Translations under genes and position numbers: made by a program
The notes under the pieces: model-generated
The model's input: the letters and a program-made list of their open reading frames with translations, nothing else
Told to the model about the DNA's origin: nothing
Database searches by the model: none
Shown here: piece after piece, positions 1,884 through 58,236 of the stretch
Layout of the letters: every line of letters starts with the position of its first letter
How positions within the stretch are numbered: position 1 is the stretch's first letter
DNA from: Bacteroidales bacterium
Lineage (GTDB): Bacteria > Bacteroidota > Bacteroidia > Bacteroidales > UBA932
Length of the DNA: 64,000 bases
Assembly: GCA_017428245.1 (NCBI GenBank)
Contig: JAFRRF010000020.1
Location: 6,421 to 70,420 of the forward strand
Direction: 5' to 3'

Positions 1884-3712
1884 TTCATTCCCATTTTAAG
1901 CGTCAAAGTCAACTGTTCATCAAAGCGCTTGAAGGTCAAAGTATAGTTTCCCTTCTTCAAGTCGGTCGTCACGATTTTCATCGCAGTCATCTCGTAAGTC
2001 ACGCAGTCTTTTATGGCTGCACCGGAAGCGTCTTTCAAACTCCAGTCCACCAAATCCTTGGTTTCGATGATGATTTCTCCCGAAGTCTTGTTGAACTGGA
2101 AGGAAGTCACTTCGTCGAGTTTCGTCCCGTCGGTTACGGGAATTTCCGTGGAGAGGCCGGCTTTCGGATCGAAAATCGGTTTTTCCCACACGCCGTCAGG
2201 CCAGTCCTGTGCGCGATACACCAGGCAAAGTCTGTCGCCCGGCAAAGGATACGACTGCATAAAACAGCTGATGGAAGGATACCCCCGGCCACTGCCGGCG
2301 GAGAGCTCGTTGAAGGTATTCACATTGCTCACGAACTCTTTGATCTGTCCCTCCGCATCGCAAAGGACGATGGCATATTCACCCATGAAAGGGCGAAGGC
2401 TGCCGTTGTAAAGGAAGCCGGCCCTGATTTTGAAAGAAGTGTGGGGAACGATTGTCTCATCACACTCGATTCCGTTATAGACGGTTCCGCTGCTGCTGGA
2501 AGTACCGCCCTGGAAATAGAGATATTCCAGCGACTGTCCGCCGTCCCCTTCCTTGGGTTTGAGGCCGAAAATGGCGCCGTGACTGTAGAGATACTTCCTG
2601 CTCTCGGTCGGAGTAAAGGCGGAAAGGGCGTAATAACCGTTGCTTGATCCGCCCCATCCCCAGTTGACGCTGACATTTCCCTGCTCGTCGTATCCGTCGA
2701 CAAGGAAGGCGTGGCCGCCGGTCTCCCGGCGGGCCGAATAAAGGATCGGACGTTCCTGAAGCTCAGCTTTGAGCATATCCAGCCACTGTTCGTCGCCGAA
2801 CAAGTCACGCTTATAATGATAGGCACCGGGGTCGAAGCCGAAATATTCGACGGCACAGCCGGCCATTTTCGGCGTACTGGCGCTCGTGGATTCATCGAAT
2901 TTGGCCTGCACGGCGACACCGCAGTCATACACCAGACGGGCCACAGCCTCACCTTCCTCCTGCGTATAGCCATCACGGTAATCGAACTTGATCTTGTCCC
3001 ACTCGTAAGGGTGTCCCAGGTCAAACCCTTCGATCGTACACTTCGAGCCGTTATCTAGGTCATAACTGTAACTTTCAAGTTTCCCCTCTCCCTTGGGCGG
3101 GAAACCGTAATAACGCATGATCATACCCATTGCCAGAGGCACGCAGCCGATAACGGCGTGAGCATCGCCGACCATCGGGGTCAGGCCGTTGAACGGGGCC
3201 GTCTGCTTCCAGACCGGCGTCACGTGTTTGACGGCCGGTTGAAAATCGCCACCCGCCTTGGTCCGGACGAACAGGGCGTCCCAGGATGCTTTCGCAGCCC
3301 GCTTGTCCACGGCACCCGCCCTGACAAAGGCGACCTGCTGTTCGAGTTCTTCCAGCCAATCAACGAGATTCTCCGGCATATCGGCGCCGGTCCCGAACGA
3401 TTCGTCGAACGAATAAGCCAGCACAGGGCGGCAGTCATCCTCGCCGGCAATAATCACGAAACCGCCGCCTGCACGGTTAAAAATGAAGTAGGCCGGCTGT
3501 TCGTCGCCCGCCTTGGTCAAAGGAGCGTGCGTGAGTTCCACCGCCTCAAGCGGAGCCATCCGGCGGGCGAAATTGCGGTCGTTCTGGAAAAAAGCCTTCG
3601 CCGTTTCCCCGGCCCGGAACGCATCGACCGGATCGGCCAGAACCGGGAATGCAGAGAGCCACGTCAGTAGGAGGCCTGCAAATAAAACTCGTACCCTTTT
3701 CATATGAATCAA
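1880..3712 (-). CDS. C10 family (streptopain-like) cysteine peptidase with N-terminal pro/inhibitor-like region
   Basis: Signal peptide present. Catalytic Cys context is GCVPLAMGMIMRYYGFP and catalytic His context is GGHAFLVDGYDEQGNVSVNWGWGGSSNGYYAL, both typical of peptidase C10. About 200 aa of extra C-terminal sequence. Confidence 0.9.
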   Translation of the reverse strand: MIHMKRVRVLFAGLLLTWLSAFPVLADPVDAFRAGETAKAFFQNDRNFARRMAPLEAVELTHAPLTKAGDEQPAYFIFNRAGGGFVIIAGEDDCRPVLAYSFDESFGTGADMPENLVDWLEELEQQVAFVRAGAVDKRAAKASWDALFVRTKAGGDFQPAVKHVTPVWKQTAPFNGLTPMVGDAHAVIGCVPLAMGMIMRYYGFPPKGEGKLESYSYDLDNGSKCTIEGFDLGHPYEWDKIKFDYRDGYTQEEGEAVARLVYDCGVAVQAKFDESTSASTPKMAGCAVEYFGFDPGAYHYKRDLFGDEQWLDMLKAELQERPILYSARRETGGHAFLVDGYDEQGNVSVNWGWGGSSNGYYALSAFTPTESRKYLYSHGAIFGLKPKEGDGGQSLEYLYFQGGTSSSSGTVYNGIECDETIVPHTSFKIRAGFLYNGSLRPFMGEYAIVLCDAEGQIKEFVSNVNTFNELSAGSGRGYPSISCFMQSYPLPGDRLCLVYRAQDWPDGVWEKPIFDPKAGLSTEIPVTDGTKLDEVTSFQFNKTSGEIIIETKDLVDWSLKDASGAAIKDCVTYEMTAMKIVTTDLKKGNYTLTFKRFDEQLTLTLKMGMK

Positions 3713-4545: not shown

Positions 4546-6371
4546 TTTCCCGTTTTAAGCGTGAAGGAATAATAACCCAGTTGAGGTTCGCCTCGGTCCA
4601 GGATGATGGTATAGGTATCCTTGGAGAGCGTGGAAAACGCAATCTCGATGGTCTTGTCGGCTGTCGTGACACCCTGGGCCACAACCGTTCCCGTCGATTT
4701 CTTGACCGACCATTTCACCCGGTCCTTGGTCTTGATCGTACACTTCCCGGCCGTCTTGTCATACCTGAACGTGGTCTCGATCACGAGATACGTGTCGTCG
4801 GCCTGCACGGGGATTTCTTTCACGAGGTCGGGGTTTTCCAGGTAATACAACGGCTCCTTCCATACGCCCTCGGGCCAGTGGTCGCTGCGATAGAAGAGCG
4901 TGATCTTGTCGCCCTCCAACGGGTAACAGGTCATGTTGCAGGGGATATTCCAGAAACTCACGCCTCCCAACGGCTTTAATTCCCCGAACGATCCTTCCTC
5001 GGAAATCCTTTCCACGATATTCCCCTCCCGGTCGGTAAGGGCAAAGAAAAACTTGCCCGCGAAAGCAGTGACTCCGCCGTTCCAGACGTATGCTACGCCC
5101 ATCTTGAATTCCTGGCCCCTGACGGGCGTGGACAGGGCGTACATTCCGTGCCAGTCGTCATCACCATTCATAAAAAGGTACTCCTCGGGCTGGCCACCCT
5201 GTCCCTTGTCGGGGACGAGGCCCAGAACGGTGGTATGCGCGTATTTGAAATGGGAGTTCGCGCCGAGCACGAACGCCGACAGGGCGAAGTAGCCGTTGCT
5301 GCTTCCACCCCAGCCCCAGTTGATGCTGAGGAAGTCCTGATTGTCGTAGCCGTCGACCACGAAACCGTGGCCACTGTCTTCACTGCTTCCCGCATAAAGG
5401 AGCGGATGCTCCTGCAATTCGGTCTTGATCATGGACATCCACTCTTCGTCGGTAAAGTACATCCGCTTGATATGGTTGACATTGGGATCGTAGCCGAAAT
5501 ACTCGATGACGGCTGGAAGCAGATTCCAGAAGTTGGTATCAGTTCCTATCGAGGAGGTATATTTCGCCTTGGCAGCCACACCCACGTCAAACATCAGACG
5601 GGACACGGCCTCCGCCTCCTCCTGCGTATAGCCCTTGGAATAGTCGAGTTTCATCTTGTCCCACTGGTAGGGATAACCCAGGTCGAAGCCTGCGACGCTA
5701 CCCTTCTCGTCCTGATACGCCCAGTCGTAGGACGGAAGAGAGCCGGTGCCCGCAGCAGGATACTTGAAGAACCGCATCACGATGCACATAGCTGTAGGAA
5801 CGCATCCGGTATAACCCCGTTTGCCGCCACTGATCGTCGGACAGTACAGGTTGAAGGGGTCGCCCTGATTGAAAAGCGCCGTCTCGTGTTTCACCTCGGG
5901 TTTGAGGTTGTTTCCAGCCTTGGTGGGATACTGCGCCGACATCCACTGGGACTTGGCCAGGTCAGCGGATTTCTGCGGGACGCCTTGGGCACGGACGACG
6001 GCAACCTGCTCTTCGAAATCGGCAAGATAAGCTTCCAATGCGGGAATTCGCTCCACATCCGCAAAATCATTCTCGTAGGAATAAGCCAGAACCGGCTTGC
6101 AGAGGTCGTCGCCAGCAATGATCACGAAACCGCCGCCTTCCCGGCTGAAGATATGGAAGGCCGACGTCGCATCGCCCGACTTGGTAAGCGGCGCTTCATA
6201 CAGGTTCACGCGGTGGAACGGGGACATCCGCCGGCCGACATTCGGGTCGCTTTGGAAAAAGACGCGCGCCACCTCGCCCGCCCGGGAAGCATCGACCGGG
6301 CCGGCAAAGGCCGGCGCAACGAGGGGCAGGACGAGCAGAACGCTCAGGAAGTAACGGGTATAACGTTTCAT
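4542..6371 (-). CDS. C10 family cysteine peptidase (paralog of 1880-3712)
   Basis: Motifs TGCVPTAMCIVMRFFKYP and SGHGFVVDGYDNQDFLSINWGWGGSSNGYFAL. The N-terminal pro-region aligns with the paralog (FFQSDPNVGRRM... versus FFQNDRNFARRM...). Confidence 0.9.
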   Translation of the reverse strand: MKRYTRYFLSVLLVLPLVAPAFAGPVDASRAGEVARVFFQSDPNVGRRMSPFHRVNLYEAPLTKSGDATSAFHIFSREGGGFVIIAGDDLCKPVLAYSYENDFADVERIPALEAYLADFEEQVAVVRAQGVPQKSADLAKSQWMSAQYPTKAGNNLKPEVKHETALFNQGDPFNLYCPTISGGKRGYTGCVPTAMCIVMRFFKYPAAGTGSLPSYDWAYQDEKGSVAGFDLGYPYQWDKMKLDYSKGYTQEEAEAVSRLMFDVGVAAKAKYTSSIGTDTNFWNLLPAVIEYFGYDPNVNHIKRMYFTDEEWMSMIKTELQEHPLLYAGSSEDSGHGFVVDGYDNQDFLSINWGWGGSSNGYFALSAFVLGANSHFKYAHTTVLGLVPDKGQGGQPEEYLFMNGDDDWHGMYALSTPVRGQEFKMGVAYVWNGGVTAFAGKFFFALTDREGNIVERISEEGSFGELKPLGGVSFWNIPCNMTCYPLEGDKITLFYRSDHWPEGVWKEPLYYLENPDLVKEIPVQADDTYLVIETTFRYDKTAGKCTIKTKDRVKWSVKKSTGTVVAQGVTTADKTIEIAFSTLSKDTYTIILDRGEPQLGYYSFTLKTGK

Positions 6372-6385
6372 CGGATCGGTACAGA

Positions 6386-18775: not shown

Positions 18776-18780
18776 CAAGC

Positions 18781-19116
18781 GGCAAGCTATTCTGTCGCGC
18801 CGCCCTCGGGCGGTGAGGAAAGTCCGGACAGCGCAGAGCGCCTCCCTGTGGAAAGCACAGATGGGTGAAAGTTCATGGAGCGCGTAACAGAAAACAACCG
18901 CCGGTTTAGCTCGGACTTGATCCGGGTCCGGCAAGGGTGAAAACGCGGGGTAAGAGCCCACGACCGGCGTCGGCGACGCCGCCGGGGTACGCACCGGAGG
19001 GCTGCAAGGCCAAATATATCGGCGTCTGAGGGCTGCTCGCCCGAGCCGAGGGGTAGGCTGCATCAGATAAATGACAGAAGCCCGCAAGGGTACAGAATCC
19101 GGCTTACCGGCTTGCC
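18781..19116 (+). ncRNA. rnpB: RNase P RNA (bacterial type A)
   Basis: Universally conserved GAGGAAAGUCCGGAC (18815-18829), ACAGAAAACA, GGUAAGAGCCCACGA and ACAGAAUCCGGCUUA segments. The 5' ggcaagc pairs with the 3' gcttgcc (P1), and a T6 run follows. Ends are approximate (a few nt either way). Confidence 0.88.
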
Positions 19117-19128
19117 TTTTTTTAGAAT

Positions 19129-20463: not shown

Positions 20464-20536
20464 GCCACTTTAGCTCAGTCGGTAGAGCAGCGCATTCGTA
20501 ACGCGCAGGTCGGCAGTCCGAGTCTGCCAAGTGGCT
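20464..20536 (+). tRNA. tRNA-Thr (anticodon CGT)
   Basis: Hand-folded cloverleaf. Acceptor GCCACTT/AAGTGGC. D arm GCTC-AGTCGGTA-GAGC. Anticodon arm GCGCA-TTCGTAA-CGCGC. Variable loop AGGTC. T arm GGCAG-TCCGAGT-CTGCC. Discriminator T. CCA is not encoded. Confidence 0.85.
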
Positions 20537-50910: not shown

Positions 50911-51675
50911 ATGGCAGATTTTATCCGATGGTTTGACACGGTTGACTCGACCAATACCCGCCTGATGGCAGACAAGGCCGATCTGGCCGACCGCAGCGTC
51001 TATGCCGCTATGTTCCAGACCGCCGGAAGGGGCCAGAAAGGAAACCGCTGGGAGAGCCGCTCCGGCGAAAACCTCACTTTTTCCATTCTCCTGAAACCCT
51101 CTTTCCTGCCGGCATCCGAGCAGTTCATCCTCTCTCAGGTCGTCGCTCTCGGGCTGACCGACTATCTGCTGGAGCAAGGTGTGGAGGCGACCATCAAATG
51201 GCCCAACGACATCTATGCCGGCGACCGGAAGATCTGCGGGACCCTGATCGAGAACACGCTTTCGGAAGGCCGGATCGCCGCCGCAGTGGCAGGCATAGGC
51301 CTGAACGTCAATCAGCGGGAATTCGACCCTTCCCTGCCCAATCCCACCTCGCTGTCCCTGCAGACCGGGCGGGAATACGACGTACGGGAGGAACTTCCCA
51401 AACTGCTGGCCTGCATCTTCCGCTATTACGAGCGGCTCGACTCGCCCTATGCCCGCAACGGATTCGACGCGATGTATCTGGAGAAACTCTACCGACGCGG
51501 TTGCTGGCATTCTTTCGAGGAGATGCCCGCCAGCGACATCCCGACCGAACACAGGTCGGGCCGCCGCATCGAAGCCCGGATTCTGGGCATTGACACGGAG
51601 GCCCGGCTGTTGCTGGAGCTCCGCGACGGAACGCTCCGGCACTACGGATTCAAGGAAATAAAATATCTCCTCTAG
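50911..51675 (+). CDS. birA: Biotin--[acetyl-CoA-carboxylase] ligase, group I (no N-terminal HTH)
   Basis: GRGQKGNRWESRSGENLTFS (GRGRxGRxW-type motif) and KWPNDIYAGDRKICGTLIE. At 254 aa it starts directly in the catalytic domain. Confidence 0.9.
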   Translation: MADFIRWFDTVDSTNTRLMADKADLADRSVYAAMFQTAGRGQKGNRWESRSGENLTFSILLKPSFLPASEQFILSQVVALGLTDYLLEQGVEATIKWPNDIYAGDRKICGTLIENTLSEGRIAAAVAGIGLNVNQREFDPSLPNPTSLSLQTGREYDVREELPKLLACIFRYYERLDSPYARNGFDAMYLEKLYRRGCWHSFEEMPASDIPTEHRSGRRIEARILGIDTEARLLLELRDGTLRHYGFKEIKYLL

Positions 51676-51682
51676 CATTTCA

Positions 51683-51886
51683 GCCGTTCCGTGACGTGGC
51701 TGCTCCTCATGGCTCGCGACAGGGGCGTCCTTCGCTCCAGTCCCTTGACGGCTAACTCCTCCCTCTTAGGCTCGCCTAAGGCAAGCCTAACGGTCGTCAA
51801 ACACACGCCGTCACTTTGACGGGACTTCCGCTTGTCCGCCTCTTTCCTGCCGCTCGCAAATCGTCGCATCCACGTTACGGAACGGC
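51683..51886 (+). repeat. Structured intergenic repeat, copy L
   Basis: The 168-nt core (51703-51870) is enclosed by a 17-bp closing stem, gccgttccgtgacgtgg (51683-51699) / ccacgttacggaacggc (51870-51886), with one G-T pair. The core matches the reverse complement of 54507-54673 with 17 substitutions and one 1-nt indel (hand alignment). Confidence 0.9.
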
Positions 51887-54496
51887 ATGTCCAGTATTCT
51901 TCCATATGAATATTTTCGTATTTTTGCAGGAAAGCACTACGAATTCTGTTCTGATCAAATGCTGTATGTTGTTCTCATACTGCTCTCTGTTGTCATCTGT
52001 TTTTGGGTGTCGATTCGGATTCGTGCAAAGAGAGAGGAAAGAATTCATCGCTTAGAGACCCTCATCCATATTCAGCCACTTGTTGAGGCAGCGCTTGACG
52101 AACTCATTTCTTTTTACAGTTATAGCCATTTCATCACTGAATCCGAGCGCATCGCCCTGAACGAGAAATATACCGACCTGTTCAAAGAAGTATCCTCCAT
52201 TATTTCTTGTAAGGAATTGGAAGAATCTCCGCATAAGGAAAGCATCCTTCGCTTCTATAATGCGATGTCCGACAGCCAGGGCCACAAAAAGGCCAACAAT
52301 GATCATTTTATTGAAAACCAACTGATTGTTTGCTCCCGGTATTTCGATACTGTGCTCTCATATCCACTTGATGGGCAACAACGGGAATCGGTTTTGTCTC
52401 TGGAAGATAATGTACTGGTCATCAGTAGTGCCGGAAGTGGCAAGACAATGACAACCGTCGGAAAGGTACGCTACCTGATTGATGTTCAAAAAGTCTCCCC
52501 AGAGAAGATCCTGCTGATAACCTTCACCCGAAAGGCAGCAGAGTCCCTGTCTGAACGCTTGGGAGAGAAGAAACTCAAATGCAACACCTTTCACAAACTT
52601 GCTTTGGATATCATCGGCGAAGCAACTGGGGAGAAGCCAAGCATAACCGGCAAAGACTTCTCTGTTCAAGTATATCACAAACTCTTCCAAGAAAACGATT
52701 CGTTCCGCCAGGCGGTTGCGGATTACATTATTCGAGCCCGCTACAAAATGAAGGATCAGTTCGAGTATACTTCGATGCAAAAATATATGCAGGACCGCAA
52801 AAAGCATGGCATTCCAGCATACTTCAAGGATATTGATGGTCATCCCGTTTTCTGCAAATCTGATGAAGAAAGCCAGATATGCGATTTCTTGGGTTCCCGA
52901 GGCATCAAGTTCCGATATGAAGAGAAATACGAGATACCCACAGTGGATTCCGATCATCGACAGTATTGCCCGGATTTCTCAATTTACATTGACAATCCAT
53001 CCGGCAAATCCAGACGTGTTTATCTTGAGCATTTCGCTGTCAATGAAAACGGCCATTGCCCAGCATTCTTCACTTCGGAAGATGAACATAAATACAAATC
53101 CGGTATCATCTGGAAACGCCAATTACATCAGCAGAATGGGACCACCTTGATTGAAACCACTAGTGCAGGATTCCACCGAGGTGATGTATTTCATGTCCTG
53201 ACCCAACAATTAAAGGACTTAGGAGTCGTCTTCAATGAATCTATAAACCAAAATCTTTCCCGGGAATTGGTCAGACAGGAAGAGAGTATCCTGAATATGC
53301 TGACATCCTTCAATTTCTTATTAAAATCTCGCGATAAAAGTATTGAATCAATCCGTCGGCAAGCATTCATGACTATAGACTGGTTCACAGTAAATGAACT
53401 CGTCACTCCGTTTATCGAAGCTTACCGAAAAATGGAAAAGGATAATAATCTCATCGATTTCACCGATGCTATCATCCGTGCTACTGAACTCTGCAACAAC
53501 GGATATCGCCCAGACTACGATTACATTCTTGTGGATGAGTTTCAGGACATCTCCCTGGACCGATATCATTTCCTTCAGTCACTTCGTCGTGAGAAACCGC
53601 TTACAAAACTCTTTTGCGTCGGTGACGACTGGCAGTCCATTTATCGCTTCGCCGGTAGTGATATGGCTCTTTTCAAGCACTTTGAGGACTACTTCGGCTA
53701 CACGAAGAAATGTCTGATGGAAACAACCTATCGTTTCGGGGAACCGGCGATAGAGCAGTCATCAAAATTCATCCTCGCCAATCCGGAACAGGCCGTTAAG
53801 AAAGTCCATCCCTTCCGGCATGAATCCGAAACCAAATTGGACTTCATACCTACACAAAGCCGGGATGATATAGTGAGAACCATCAAGAGACTGTCGGACC
53901 AGACTTCTCCAGATAAAGAAATTCTGCTGCTCGGCCGTTACTCATTCGATATCAACGTCTTCAAAAACACTGACATATCCATTCACGACGGAGCAGACTA
54001 TATATCATACGGACAACGGAAAATGCGTTACATGACTGTCCACCAATCCAAAGGTTTGGAGAGCGACTATGTCATCTTGATCAACTGCAATGGTGGAACG
54101 ATGGGCTTTCCGGCTGATATCTCGGACAGTCCTGTACTCAGATATGTTCTGACTGAACCGGATGCCTATGTATTCAGCGAAGAACGTCGTGTCTTCTATG
54201 TTGGAATAACCCGGGCAAAAAAACATACCTGGGTACTTTACGACCAAAACAATCCTTCGCCTTTCGTCAAGGAGTTTGTAGATATTGATGAAGAAGAAAA
54301 CGAAAACATCATCCCCGAATCAGAGCGCTGCCCGAAGTGTCACTGCGGCCGAATCATCGTGGCTAAAAGAGGAAAAGCCGTCAACGGTAATCCCTATTCT
54401 GTGCTGATCTGCTCCAATGAAAAGTACGGATGTGATTACAGGGAAACTGTGTTCGTGAACCTCAACAAACCCAGACAGTACCCAAAAAGAAAGTAA
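51887..54496 (+). CDS. Membrane-anchored SF1 UvrD/Rep/HelD-like helicase with an inserted PD-(D/E)xK-like module and a C-terminal topoisomerase-type zinc ribbon
   Basis: Walker A SSAGSGKTMT (52427-), Walker B ILVDEFQD, VGDDWQSIYRFAGS, TYRFG, MTVHQSKGLESDYVIL and VFYVGITRAKK. The insert contains QYCPDFSIY...RVYLEHF. C-terminus is CPKCHCGRIIV...LICSNEKYGCDY. An alternative start is at 51959. Confidence 0.85.
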   Translation: MSSILPYEYFRIFAGKHYEFCSDQMLYVVLILLSVVICFWVSIRIRAKREERIHRLETLIHIQPLVEAALDELISFYSYSHFITESERIALNEKYTDLFKEVSSIISCKELEESPHKESILRFYNAMSDSQGHKKANNDHFIENQLIVCSRYFDTVLSYPLDGQQRESVLSLEDNVLVISSAGSGKTMTTVGKVRYLIDVQKVSPEKILLITFTRKAAESLSERLGEKKLKCNTFHKLALDIIGEATGEKPSITGKDFSVQVYHKLFQENDSFRQAVADYIIRARYKMKDQFEYTSMQKYMQDRKKHGIPAYFKDIDGHPVFCKSDEESQICDFLGSRGIKFRYEEKYEIPTVDSDHRQYCPDFSIYIDNPSGKSRRVYLEHFAVNENGHCPAFFTSEDEHKYKSGIIWKRQLHQQNGTTLIETTSAGFHRGDVFHVLTQQLKDLGVVFNESINQNLSRELVRQEESILNMLTSFNFLLKSRDKSIESIRRQAFMTIDWFTVNELVTPFIEAYRKMEKDNNLIDFTDAIIRATELCNNGYRPDYDYILVDEFQDISLDRYHFLQSLRREKPLTKLFCVGDDWQSIYRFAGSDMALFKHFEDYFGYTKKCLMETTYRFGEPAIEQSSKFILANPEQAVKKVHPFRHESETKLDFIPTQSRDDIVRTIKRLSDQTSPDKEILLLGRYSFDINVFKNTDISIHDGADYISYGQRKMRYMTVHQSKGLESDYVILINCNGGTMGFPADISDSPVLRYVLTEPDAYVFSEERRVFYVGITRAKKHTWVLYDQNNPSPFVKEFVDIDEEENENIIPESERCPKCHCGRIIVAKRGKAVNGNPYSVLICSNEKYGCDYRETVFVNLNKPRQYPKRK
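51919..51926 (+). promoter_or_regulatory. Candidate -7 box (TATTTTTG) inside the listed 5' end of the helicase ORF
   Basis: Matches TAnnTTTG. If it is used, the helicase starts at the in-frame ATG at 51959 (MLYVVLILLSVVICFWV, a TM helix). Confidence 0.4.
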
Positions 54497-54687
54497 TCAA
54501 GGCAGGGATACGACGATTTGTGAACGGCAGGAAACAGGCGGACAAGCGGAAGCCCCGCCAAAGTAACGGCGTGTGTTTGACGACCGTTAGACTCGCTTTG
54601 GCGAGGCTAAAAGGGAGGAGTTAGCCGTATAGGGGCTGGAGCGAAGGACGCCCCTGCCGCGAACCATGAGGAGAATCCCTGCCTTGA
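54497..54687 (-). repeat. Structured intergenic repeat, copy R (inverted relative to L)
   Basis: The core (54507-54673) is enclosed by a 13-bp perfect closing stem, tcaaggcagggat (54497-54509) / atccctgccttga (54675-54687). It starts at the nucleotide after the helicase stop codon and lies 27 nt downstream of the rpe stop on the minus strand. Confidence 0.9.
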
Positions 54688-54713
54688 TTAGGCAGTAAAG
54701 GATAGACAGAACA

Positions 54714-55373
54714 CTATTTCGCTTCCATCAGAGCCTTGATGGCAGCTTTCGGATCGTCTGCGGAGAAAGTGGCGGAACCGGCCACGAAGACGCCGGCACC
54801 CAGCCGCTCAAGCTCCGCGATATTCGACACATTCACGCCGCCGTCCACCTGGATGAAGCAGTCGGCTTCGGCGCCGGCGATCATCTCGGCGAGCACACCC
54901 ACTTTCTCGGTAGTCTCGGGAATGTATTTCTGGCCGCTGTAGCCCGGATGTACGCCCATCACCACCACATAGTCGATGTCGCGCAGATAAGGAATCAGCA
55001 CCTCGGCCGGAGTCTCCGGATTCACAGCCACGCCGGCTCCCATCCCGAAATCGTGAATCATCTTGATGCACTCCTTCAAGTGACGGTCGTTACACGCCTC
55101 ATAATGAACGCTAAGATACTTTACACCGAGCGCAGCGAAGCGCTCGATATAACGACACGGCTCGATAATCATCAAGTGCGCGTCGAGCGGCTTTTTCGCC
55201 ACTTCGGCAATAGCCTTGCACACCGGGAAACCGAACGAAATGTTCGGAACGAAAACACCGTCCATCACATCGAGATGGAACCAACCCGCCGCACTCCGGT
55301 TCACGAGACGGCAGTCGCGATGCAAATTGCCGAAATCGGCGGAAAGCATCGAAGGAGCAATCACCCGGGGCAT
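54714..55373 (-). CDS. rpe: Ribulose-phosphate 3-epimerase
   Basis: IAPSMLSADFGNL, HLDVMDGVFVPNISFG and MGVHPGYSGQKYI. Start moved to MPRVIAPS (55373), not the listed 55526, which overlaps pepD. Confidence 0.92.
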   Translation of the reverse strand: MPRVIAPSMLSADFGNLHRDCRLVNRSAAGWFHLDVMDGVFVPNISFGFPVCKAIAEVAKKPLDAHLMIIEPCRYIERFAALGVKYLSVHYEACNDRHLKECIKMIHDFGMGAGVAVNPETPAEVLIPYLRDIDYVVVMGVHPGYSGQKYIPETTEKVGVLAEMIAGAEADCFIQVDGGVNVSNIAELERLGAGVFVAGSATFSADDPKAAIKALMEAK

Positions 55374-55375
55374 GG

Positions 55376-56806
55376 CTAGATGTTTTTGAGAACGTCGAGC
55401 AGGACAGCCCAGAAACGGTCGAGCGAGGCCAGGTCGAGCCGCTCGCCGGGCGCGTGGACGCCACGAAGCGTAGGTCCGAAGGCGATCATATCCATATCCG
55501 GGAATTTTTCCGTAAACAGGCCGCACTCCAGACCGGCATGGATGGCGCGGACAATCGGCTCACGGCCGAACAGACGCTTGTAAGACTCCACGCAGACATC
55601 TTTGATGTGGGAATTCATATTCGGCTTCCAGCCAGGATATCCATCTGAATGCTTGACCTTTGCACCAGCAAGCTCAAGTACCGCAGCAACACGTTCCGAC
55701 AGGAAGATGCGCTGGCTGTTGACCGAACTGCGCTGCATCGTTCCCACCAGGATCTTATGCCCTTTCGCCATCTTTACGGATGCCAGGTTCGTTGAAGTCT
55801 CGATCAGGCCCGGAATATCCGCACTCATGGCCTCGACACCGTGCGGGATGGAAATCAGGGCACGGATCAGACGGACGGCCGTACCGCGGTCGATCGCCCC
55901 ACCCTCCCATTCGATGGGTTCAGCCTGGAAATACAGGCCGGGATCGGTCACGGCATATTCCGCTTTCAGACGGGCGGCAAAGTCATTGAACACGGCAACG
56001 ACCTTTTCTTCGCGACGGGCGGGAATGGCTACCACCACCTCACCGCCACGTGCAATGGCGTTCCGCTTGTTTCCGGCGCCGATATGGCAGAGGTCGATGC
56101 GATAAGGCCAGATTTCGTTGAGGAAACGGGCAATCTGCTGGACAGCGTTGATACGTCCCTTGTCGATATCGTCTCCGCTGTGGCCGCCCTGGCCGCCACC
56201 GATGGTAAACTTCGTCACCACGAAGCCAGGCAGCAGTTTCCTGTCCCGATATGTGAATGTACCGACCGTATCCATGCCGCCGGCGCAGCCGACACAGAAA
56301 TAGCCCTCGTCTTCATCGTCGAGATTGATGAGCGTCTTTCCGGTGACGAATCCCTTCTTCACGGCGCGGGCGCCGTCCAGCCCCGTCTCTTCGGAAACGG
56401 TGAAAAGGCATTCGACACGCGGATGCTCGATCGTGTCGTCATCGAGCACAGCCATCGCCGCCGCCACACCGATGCCGTTATCGGCGCCAAGCGTCGTGTC
56501 ATGGGCGATCATCCATCCGTCCTCAATCACATATTGGATCGCATCCCGGGAAAAATCGAAACCCGAAGTGCTTTTTTTCTCGCACACCATATCGGTATGT
56601 CCCTGAAGCACGACGGTCGGACGGTTTTCATACCCTTTCGAGGCCGGCTTTGCGATCATCACGTTGCCGACCCTGTCGGTCTTGCATTCCAGGCCGCGGT
56701 CCGCGGCGAATTTCTGCAGATAGGCGATGATTTGTTCCTCATGCCCGGACTCCCGCGGGATACGGGTAATCTCGCGGAAGAAGTTCAAAACTCTGTCTGT
56801 ATTCAT
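55376..56806 (-). CDS. pepD: Aminoacyl-histidine (Xaa-His) dipeptidase, M20C
   Basis: FFREITRIPRESGHEEQI, VVLQGHTDMVCEK, GADNGIGVAAAMAVL and the overall length are typical of PepD. Confidence 0.85.
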   Translation of the reverse strand: MNTDRVLNFFREITRIPRESGHEEQIIAYLQKFAADRGLECKTDRVGNVMIAKPASKGYENRPTVVLQGHTDMVCEKKSTSGFDFSRDAIQYVIEDGWMIAHDTTLGADNGIGVAAAMAVLDDDTIEHPRVECLFTVSEETGLDGARAVKKGFVTGKTLINLDDEDEGYFCVGCAGGMDTVGTFTYRDRKLLPGFVVTKFTIGGGQGGHSGDDIDKGRINAVQQIARFLNEIWPYRIDLCHIGAGNKRNAIARGGEVVVAIPARREEKVVAVFNDFAARLKAEYAVTDPGLYFQAEPIEWEGGAIDRGTAVRLIRALISIPHGVEAMSADIPGLIETSTNLASVKMAKGHKILVGTMQRSSVNSQRIFLSERVAAVLELAGAKVKHSDGYPGWKPNMNSHIKDVCVESYKRLFGREPIVRAIHAGLECGLFTEKFPDMDMIAFGPTLRGVHAPGERLDLASLDRFWAVLLDVLKNI

Positions 56807-56808
56807 AT

Positions 56809-58236
56809 TTATGCGTTGAGCGCCCGCTCGATGTCATGGACGAAACCGCGGAAACTGCGGTCGGTATCCATCAGGTCATTGACCGTGTTGCAGGCGTGAA
56901 GTACCGTCGCATGGTCCTTGCCGCCCAACTGGGCGCCAATGGACGAAAGGGAGGTCTTTGTCAGATTGCGGCTCAGATACATCGCAATCTGGCGCGCCTG
57001 CACGATTTCGCGCTTGCGCGTCTTGGAAAGGAAAATTTCGTCGGTAATGCCGAAATAGTTGCAGACCGCTTCCTGGATCCGCGGAACCGTGATTTCGCTC
57101 TTGGGATCGGTGACGATCTTGTCGACGAGCCGCTGGGCGAGATCCAGCGTGATTTCCTGATGATTGAAAGTGGCGTTGGCGATCAGGGAGAAAAGGATGC
57201 CCTCCAACTCACGGATATTCGTCTTGACGCTCCGCGCTACGAACGCAAGCACGTCCTCGGCAATTTCCACACCCTCTCGGGCACATTTCGCCTGAAGGAT
57301 CGCAAGACGCGTCTCATAGGCCGGCGGAAGCAGTTCCGCAGAAAGTCCCCACTTGAAACGGGAGAGAAGACGCTGGTCAAGGCCCTGCAGGTCCACGGGC
57401 GGCTTGTCGGAGGTGAGGATCAACTGCTTTCCGCTCTGGTGCAGATAGTTGAAGATGTGGAAGAATGCACCCTGCGTGCCCTTCTTTTCAGCGAATTCCT
57501 GAACGTCATCGATAATCAGGACGTCGATGAGCTGATAGAAGCGGAGGAAATCGGCCACCTTGTTGCCGTTGTTCGCGCTCTTGGCCGAACAGGCGGCGTT
57601 CATATACTGGTTCTGGAAAGTATTGGCGCCCACATAAAGCACCACCTTCTCAGGAAAACGCTCCTTGACCGCAATGCCGATGGCCTGCGCCAGATGGGTC
57701 TTGCCCAGACCGGGACCGCCATAGATGAACAGCGGATTGAAAGTGCTCCGTCCGGGGTTGGCAGCGATGCTCTCACCGGCGGAACGGGCCAGCCGGTTGC
57801 AACTGCCTTCGATAAAATTCTCGAAATTATAGATCGGATTGAGACAGGGCTCGATGTTCAGCCGGCGGAGACCCGGAATGGCATAGGCGCTGCCCGTATA
57901 ATGCGCGCCCGCCTCGGGAATCGGCAGTTCCGCATTGCGGATCCGGCCGCCCTTGGGACGCTGCTCGATGAAAATGTCGTCGAGGATGCGGACTTTGTAA
58001 ACCAGGGAGGCGGAAGGTCCGATCTCACGGCGGAGCACCTTGCTCAGCAGGCCGATGAAATGCTCTTCGATATACTCCCGCCAGAAGTCAGACGGTACCT
58101 CGATCGTAAGCCGCTGGTCCTCCAGGGAGATCGGCTTGATCGGTCCGAACCAGGTCTTGAAAGTCTCTTCGTTCAGGTTATCCCTGAGGATTTCAAGGCA
58201 ACGGGTCCAAACTTCTGTCTGTCTTTCGGGAATCAT
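56809..58236 (-). CDS. dnaA: Chromosomal replication initiator protein DnaA
   Basis: NPLFIYGGPGLGKTHLAQAIG, LIIDDVQEF, and the C-terminal DNA-binding domain (REIVQARQIAMYLSRNLTKTSLSSIGAQLGGKDHATVLHA). Confidence 0.97.
   Translation of the reverse strand: MIPERQTEVWTRCLEILRDNLNEETFKTWFGPIKPISLEDQRLTIEVPSDFWREYIEEHFIGLLSKVLRREIGPSASLVYKVRILDDIFIEQRPKGGRIRNAELPIPEAGAHYTGSAYAIPGLRRLNIEPCLNPIYNFENFIEGSCNRLARSAGESIAANPGRSTFNPLFIYGGPGLGKTHLAQAIGIAVKERFPEKVVLYVGANTFQNQYMNAACSAKSANNGNKVADFLRFYQLIDVLIIDDVQEFAEKKGTQGAFFHIFNYLHQSGKQLILTSDKPPVDLQGLDQRLLSRFKWGLSAELLPPAYETRLAILQAKCAREGVEIAEDVLAFVARSVKTNIRELEGILFSLIANATFNHQEITLDLAQRLVDKIVTDPKSEITVPRIQEAVCNYFGITDEIFLSKTRKREIVQARQIAMYLSRNLTKTSLSSIGAQLGGKDHATVLHACNTVNDLMDTDRSFRGFVHDIERALNA

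Follow-up and report, generated by a model that had tools for sequence, protein, structure and literature searches.

The attC sites of integrons are imperfect palindromes that border cassettes poor in promoters or made up of a single gene; their structure is conserved while their stem sequence is not, and their active form is a folded single strand. Mobile insertion cassettes and other MITE-flanked composites (e.g. MIC231) carry transposase-less passengers between inverted short repeats, which are also found solitary. ERIC/IRU, Correia/NEMIS, BOX and REP/BIME repeats are transcribed intergenic palindromic units that lie at gene 3' ends and fold as RNA, and some of their members have insertions at fixed points. 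The tRNA and tmRNA genes that serve as island sites are conserved structured genes with one defined end facing a variable island, and the invertons of Bacteroidales consist of a 150–200 bp segment between perfect inverted repeats of 16–30 bp. How small, recombinase-less defence genes enter precise, non-disruptive chromosomal sites is an open question.

Here we describe a folded element that resembles these systems in several of the respects just named and that is present as two inverted copies, L and R, in a 64,000-nucleotide stretch of Bacteroidales DNA, the whole of which we refer to as the window. In their anatomy, L and R are members of an undescribed family of quasi-palindromic folded elements of about 200 nt from a rumen/gut Bacteroidales clade, and the element is a conserved, foldable marker of non-disruptive insertion sites of this kind. 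The original prediction, made from the letters of the window, had suggested a structured RNA read toward the cassette from both sides, fitting a 3'-UTR element or a small RNA as well as a DNA-level repeat.

Results

Two inverted copies around a helicase cassette

The features of the locus are listed in Table 1. L and R match each other as inverted copies over two arms, one of 94 nt (89% complementary) and one of 83 nt (88%), and they are the only copies in the 64-kb window, where chance would be expected to yield none. Both copies form rods, each closed by a stem of its own, which in L consists of GCCGTTCCGTGACGTGG / CCACGTTACGGAACGGC (17 pairs, including one G.T) and in R of TAATCAAGGCAGGGAT / ATCCCTGCCTTGATTA (16 perfect pairs). 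The two stems had been described as unrelated in sequence, which they are, and the 17 bp with one G-T pair given for L were correct; the 13 bp given for R were too few. The internal differences between the copies were as predicted. In the helix formed by 51712–51723 and 51846–51857, a C-G pair of L is replaced by T-A in R and an A.C mismatch of L by G-C, with one additional G.T in R; the hairpin at 51808–51822 is kept in R as CCGTTA...TGGCGG through two T.G (G-U) pairs; and the central hairpin at 51766–51790 is retained in both copies. The spacers that separate the copies from the flanking stop codons, previously put at 8 nt (birA) and 27 nt (rpe), measure 7 and 23 nt, respectively. Overall, the similarity of L to R is of subfamily level, as is that of R to copies at other loci.

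Table 1. Positions of the two copies, their parts and the surrounding genes in the window.
Feature	Position	Strand	Remarks
Copy L	51683–51886		204 nt; covariance-model match 51729–51824 (+), 92.6 bits
L closing stem P1, outer arm	51683–51699		pairs with 51870–51886: 16 Watson-Crick pairs and 1 G.T
L closing stem P1, inner arm	51870–51886		adjoins the cassette
Near-invariant core of L	51746–51813		P4 TGACGGC / GCCGTCA around loop TAACTCCTCCCT(C/T)TTA, hairpin P5 and loop TAACGGTCGTCAAACACAC
Hairpin P5 of L	51766–51790		C.A mismatch on + is G.U on -
Copy R	54494–54690		197 nt; covariance-model match 54553–54647 (-), 86.9 bits
R closing stem P1, inner arm	54494–54509		first 3 bases are the helicase stop codon TAA
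R closing stem P1, outer arm	54675–54690		16 perfect pairs with 54494–54509
Core of R	54564–54630		P4 weakened: G-C replaced by T.T
Inserted block, ~3.04 kb	51676–54713		7-nt spacer, L, cassette, R, 23-nt spacer; compared with the empty site of L127–L138
birA, host flank	50911–51675	+	
-7 promoter box of cassette	51919–51926	+	TATTTTTG, Bacteroidetes-type; conserved upstream of helicase homologues at unrelated loci
UvrD/GajB-like SF1 helicase gene	51959–54496	+	845 aa; GC ~44% against ~58% in the flanks
rpe, host flank	54714–55373	-	

The promoter box TATTTTTG corresponds to the Bacteroidetes-type -7 consensus TAnnTTTG. Comparison with homologues elsewhere indicated that the helicase cassette carries only this box and its own ORF. 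Helicase homologues of 72–80% identity at six other loci are without the element, and a homologue (85% identical) of the PHP-AAA protein of another cassette, described below, is likewise without it at L140 and L141; the idea that the element is a part of the helicase cassette was rejected on these grounds.

The rpe–birA junction in three states

The gene order of the window (dnaA, M20 peptidase, rpe, birA, rsfS, ftsH) recurs in three related species clusters in which rpe is 88–91% identical and no element was found. In these relatives the stop codons of rpe and birA overlap on opposite strands (GCTTAGAGG; positions 5154–5157 of L127, also L131 and L135), with zero intergenic DNA between the two genes. 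Because the stops overlap without the element in relatives, window positions 51676–54713 represent an insertion. All contigs with an identical rpe, and hence from the same species, carry the same block.

An origin of L and R as ancient 3'-UTRs of birA and rpe was rejected on account of the empty site. The 3'-UTR reading is weakened further by several other loci at which an intrinsic terminator separates the upstream gene from the element, and by L016, where the strand proposed for the RNA is antisense to both neighbouring genes. Two further explanations were discarded: insertion of the unit into a pre-existing terminator palindrome, considered as a source of the unique stems, does not agree with an empty site that has no intergenic DNA, and a recent duplication in this window does not agree with subfamily-level similarity and unrelated stems.

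In another species (L054, L079 and L102) the same junction holds one element, which belongs to a different subfamily and has a perfect 28-bp stem. L139, from a close relative of that species, has identical outer flanks and two inverted copies with the same 28-bp stem, between which lie genes for a WYL regulator, a PHP-AAA protein and a restriction-endonuclease-like (REase-ARP) protein; L056 carries the same cassette. One junction therefore occurs in three states, namely empty with overlapping stops, with one element, and as element–cassette–element, and this series makes the process of cassette gain and loss directly testable.

Some additional observations concern this junction. Between positions 6378–6604 of L054 and 75–300 of L139 the arms and outer flanks are the same and the interior of the element is in opposite orientation. 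In L056, the sequence just inside the left copy (AACAAAACATCGAT) is similar to that flanking the L054 element on its rpe side (AACAAGACATCGAT). Synteny with L119 indicates that the M20 peptidase gene (55376–56806, minus strand) and dnaA (56809–58236, minus strand) adjoin rpe in the window, an order that places an insertion hotspot two genes from dnaA.

Size, anatomy and novelty of the family

Genomes of uncultured Bacteroidales from cattle, buffalo, deer and reindeer contain an exact 20-mer of the core at 22 true loci. Each species genome holds 1–3 exact-motif matches, which is a low copy number. One match outside this group, L018 (Rhodobacterales), was set aside as a chance occurrence of the 20-mer (covariance score of 16.7 bits). 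A second, independent pattern identified 89 metagenome stretches, with 84 matches in metagenome contigs, and a covariance model of the core detected 104 copies at 47–104 bits.

The elements measure 197–280 nt, typically about 200 nt. Closing stems of 12–33 bp, mutually unrelated, are present in 19 of the 26 sampled copies, several being perfect over 27–30 bp. The closing stem (P1) and helices P2 and P3, which differ between subfamilies, enclose the core and hairpin P6. A three-way junction carries the nearly invariant core of 68 nt, in which, as aligned on the strand proposed for the RNA (L read on the plus strand and R on the minus strand, hereafter the proposed strand), P4 encloses loop TAACTCCTCCCTTTTA, the variable hairpin P5 and loop TAACGGTCGTCAAACACAC. 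P6 adjoins the core and ranges from 3 bp to an insertion of ~70 nt. In the family alignment, similarity peaks in the centre and falls toward both ends.

One of the core loops, the invariant CU-rich CUCCUCCCUUUU (window 51753–51768), is complementary to the G-rich 5' arm of the neighbouring helix, which reads GGGAGG or AAAAAGGG depending on the subfamily (P2 and P3 of other copies), and this complementarity suggests an alternative pairing. The same loop resembles the 3' end of 16S rRNA.

Searched against Rfam 15 at gathering scores, the window yielded only RNase P RNA and a tRNA. These matches lie at 18779–19122 (RNase P RNA class A, 199.9 bits) and 20464–20536 (tRNA, 60.3 bits). At E ≤ 10 over 51600–54800 there were two chance matches only, and six further loci from other subfamilies also gave no family match at the element. 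A keyword search of the literature returned no description of it.

Covariation across the family

For the core helices P4 and P5, 91.7% of cells were paired in 84 distinct sequences, as compared with 77.5% in shuffles, and the covariation score was 0.285 vs. 0.076 in shuffled and at most 0.092 in slid controls. One P4 pair occurs as U-A, C-G, G-C or G-U, and P5 positions show up to four pair types each across the family. With a full-length model of 60 pairs in 22 copies, which were aligned by sequence only and one of which supplied the model, 83.5% vs. 75.1% were paired, 29 of the 60 pairs were altered on both sides and 17 of the 22 P1 pairs covaried. None of 500 shuffles was as high in the fraction of paired cells for the core helices, and none in the number of pairs altered on both sides for the full-length model. 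Helix-supporting covariation of this kind is a general feature of structured non-coding RNAs. Compensatory changes in P1, including one inserted base pair, were also evident among the birA-linked orthologues (window, L060 and L020) and the related copy of L019, the birA-linked copy being retained with such changes in a species whose BirA is only 78% identical. The conserved folded element of the original prediction, and the covariation that it implied, are thus borne out at the scale of the family. Taken together, these comparisons show that the fold of the element is under selection, and that it is neither a chance palindrome nor a known MITE.

The same data bear on whether the element could be a decaying non-autonomous transposon (MITE) or a composite transposon, its pairing being that of terminal inverted repeats. 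Pairing of this sort would not account for compensatory changes in internal helices, nor for similarity that is highest centrally and decays to both ends. Terminal sequences are different at every locus, conserved terminal inverted repeats being absent both in the 19 sampled copies with unrelated stems and between L and R. No direct repeat marks a target-site duplication when the window junctions are compared with the empty site GCTTAGAGG, and L011 and L139 likewise show none. Bursts of near-identical copies are absent, the only such copies being local pairs, and the viral contigs, phages and plasmids searched contained no match. We consider such an origin very improbable, notwithstanding that a block inserted at an otherwise empty site, with transposase-less cargo between inverted copies as in mobile insertion cassettes and with single copies elsewhere, is what it would produce.

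Strand preference of the fold

On the proposed strand L folds at -89.5 kcal/mol (z of -6.7 vs. shuffled sequence) and R at -83.8 kcal/mol (z of -8.0), each far better than shuffled sequence. The call of the RNA strand, on the other hand, was not upheld. The opposite strand was the more stable in all four copies folded, with -108.1 kcal/mol (z of -8.8) for L, -92.5 kcal/mol (z of -8.1) for R, and -118.1 vs. -104.5 and -138.6 vs. -126.1 kcal/mol for two further copies. Its z scores were equal or better in all four (both strands together spanning -6.7 to -9.2), and its consensus energy over 22 copies was -60.8 as against -44.4 kcal/mol.

The strand call had rested on the claim that all wobble pairs are G-U only on the proposed strand, which proved selective, as the central hairpin of L has a C.A on that strand and its internal helix an A.C, each of which would become G.U on the other. 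In P1 the ratio of G.U to A.C, in counts read by eye from tables, is about 9:11 on the proposed strand and 19:6 in an alignment of the opposite strand, and P5 of L, of L060 and of one whole subfamily has A.C on the proposed strand. Contrary evidence comes from the CCGUCA / UGRCGG hairpin and from P4, which show U.G on the proposed strand in several lineages. The evidence on strand therefore appears to run both ways, and the counts of wobble vs. A.C pairs do not favour the proposed strand. This missing asymmetry is unusual for an RNA acting from one strand.

These results have to be set against the possibility that the element is an independent functional RNA gene (a small RNA that RNase III frees from a long processing stem, or a new ribozyme or aptamer-like RNA) that serves as a preferred landing place for islands. 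Several observations would fit: a core that does not vary, peripheral helices that covary and insertions that differ between copies, about 1–3 matches per genome, orthologous retention with compensatory changes, the recurrent change of U-A to U.G in CCGUCA / UGRCGG together with G.U in P4 on the proposed strand, and the likeness of the CU-rich loop CUCCUCCCUUUU to an anti-Shine-Dalgarno or seed sequence. We nevertheless regard an RNA gene as unlikely. Folding energies favour the opposite strand. Neither strand yielded a conserved promoter or terminator, and visual inspection of the upstream sequence for TAnnTTTG gave inconsistent results on both. Stable bacterial RNAs seldom contain perfect duplexes of 27–30 bp, and the element is not always oriented in the same way with respect to the genes beside it, L003 and L016 being opposite. 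Moreover, absence of the element from close relatives argues against a housekeeping RNA.

Pairs, cargo and genomic context

Five independent pairs were identified (window, L011, L022, L002 and L056/L139), and in all five the same end, the 3' end of the proposed strand, faces the accessory cassette; back-to-back pairs were not seen. Their cargo comprises a UvrD/GajB-like helicase, a Mokosh-like helicase-nuclease, XRE and HNH proteins, WYL and AAA proteins, and a TPR protein. Single elements have a gene for a Schlafen-like helicase, a WYL protein or an RHS protein, or an orphan gene, on the inward side and core genes on the opposite side, and the element of L048 marks a step down in GC content from 60% to 47%. 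The elements, whether paired or single, mark borders of inserted accessory genes, mostly of defence type. L007 has the cassette of L022 and its right-hand copy, the left-hand copy being absent and the left flank different; L002b is a partial copy, and at least 13 contigs end in or beside an element, both of which we take as signs of fragility or variability.

Several loci showed further peculiarities. L029, from a host of lower GC content, has two tandem direct copies with a common closing stem (1548–1639 and 1820–1911, 272 nt apart), the sole tandem direct pair seen. At L022 an unrelated direct repeat of ~180 nt (75% identity; 3235–3416 and 5244–5425) with an internal hairpin TTGCCGCCT...GAGGCGGCAA lies just inside both copies, and at L002 three tandem 22-nt repeats (GGCRCAGGTCAGTA...) are found upstream of copy a (5400–5475). 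L019 and L020 have homologous closing stems beside an M48 peptidase gene; their relative orientations are opposite and their neighbours different, which suggests that the element served as a breakpoint in rearrangements.

Almost every copy is located at the 3' end of a gene, in most cases between two convergent genes, with L beginning 7 nt past the birA stop and the inner arm of R overlapping the helicase stop. Such placement would be expected of a cis-acting RNA border structure, that is, a rod that terminates, insulates or 3'-stabilises transcripts arriving from either side and that would isolate foreign cassettes from convergent host genes. If both strands are transcribed both must fold, which they do (z of -6.7 to -9.2), and the lack of G.U-over-A.C asymmetry is a prediction of this two-strand constraint. 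On the other side, no U-tract follows the stems, terminator-like sites are at chance level (3 in 51500–54900, where 3.4 are expected, and none at a closing stem), and in L011b, L007/L022b and L022a the upstream gene is already followed by a canonical intrinsic terminator before the element is reached. In addition, 35 invariant unpaired bases would be superfluous for a simple insulator, and neither pairs with the same end inward nor a second copy with the same locus-specific stem is explained by a border that acts as RNA. We therefore judge this explanation somewhat unlikely.

Discussion

We tentatively favour, at a little short of an even chance, the reading that the element is a folded cassette-border element acting in cis, most likely at the level of DNA. 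It is preferred because the second copy arises locally and has the stem peculiar to that locus, because the stems are long, perfect inverted repeats, because both strands fold with wobble pairs favouring neither, and because gain and loss occur between close relatives. A hairpin or cruciform at the cassette border might be recognised, or might be fragile, during cassette gain or loss, and the conserved core would then be bound by a putative factor whose gene lies elsewhere in the genome. As each closing stem is itself an inverted repeat, two inverted copies set its arms as direct repeats (a..a'..a..a'). Recombination between stem arms could excise the cassette, and the one element left behind might have either orientation, which would explain both the varied orientation of single elements and the interior flip between L054 and the left copy of L139.

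A number of points count against this DNA-level reading. In none of the cassettes did we detect a recombinase, a transposase or a nuclease, and neither target-site duplications nor shared terminal bases are present. Because the junctions with the cassette fall outside the variable closing stem, sequence-specific crossover is unlikely there, and a circular molecule integrated conservatively would leave its copies in direct rather than inverted orientation. An architecture in which several helices meet at a junction, and in which invariant unpaired loops are combined with hairpins that vary in length, is typical of functional RNAs, and the retention of the birA-linked copy with compensatory changes (BirA 78% identical) fits a selected, gene-like unit. 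The origin of the second copy, finally, is a step for which the DNA-level reading has no explanation.

A more specific and rather doubtful proposal is that Bacteroidales possess a new cassette-capture system, integron-like in function and unlike integrons in construction, which recognises or processes the element. A factor from elsewhere in the genome would bind the invariant core of the folded hairpin of ~200 nt, foreign genes would be inserted at the base of the closing stem with the making of an inverted second copy, and cassettes would later be lost through recombination of the stem arms. As an alternative reading, the core may represent a new class of self-cleaving ribozyme or aptamer tied to defence islands. 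If the element proves to be RNA, it will be a large, well-supported orphan motif from an uncultured clade.

Comparison with described systems sets the element apart in several ways. Whereas attC sites measure 57–141 nt and have R'' and R' boxes at their ends and a variable centre, the element has an invariant centre and variable ends, and at 197–280 nt it shows no conserved sequence corresponding to R'' (RYYYAAC) or R' (GTTRRRY) at its ends. The arrays of attC sites run in one orientation beside intI and attI; the element forms inverted pairs (5 of 5, apart from the one tandem direct pair), and no integrase was seen in the flanks examined. MIC231-type composites have conserved terminal inverted repeats that match an IS, and target-site duplications; the element has neither, nor was a transposase found in its cassettes. 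ERIC, Correia, BOX and REP repeats are high-copy, near-identical within a genome and conserved at their ends. By contrast, the element is found in few copies that have diverged deeply, its invariant core is not a palindrome, and it is associated with the borders of cassettes. Against REP, REPIN and BIME units in particular (20–40 nt, hundreds per genome, RAYT), the low-copy unit of ~200 nt stands apart, and no reverse transcriptase domain of the kind expected for retrons occurs in the Pfam-scanned proteins or the gene tables of the loci examined.

Islands at tRNA genes are accompanied by an integrase and a short direct repeat of the 3' part of the tRNA, whereas the second copy of the element is inverted, often complete and endowed with the same locus-specific stem. 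One comparison (L054 vs. the left copy of L139 and L056) shows an apparent interior flip between the same arms, as might be expected of an inverton; the element differs in having inverted repeats without a recombinase consensus, covarying interior helices with no clear promoter, and an orientation that is stable among the orthologues of the window, L060 and L020. Without the defining features of either, the element would resemble attC sites and MITE-flanked cassettes in role, and it is probably closest in kind to a structured border repeat of gene cassettes.
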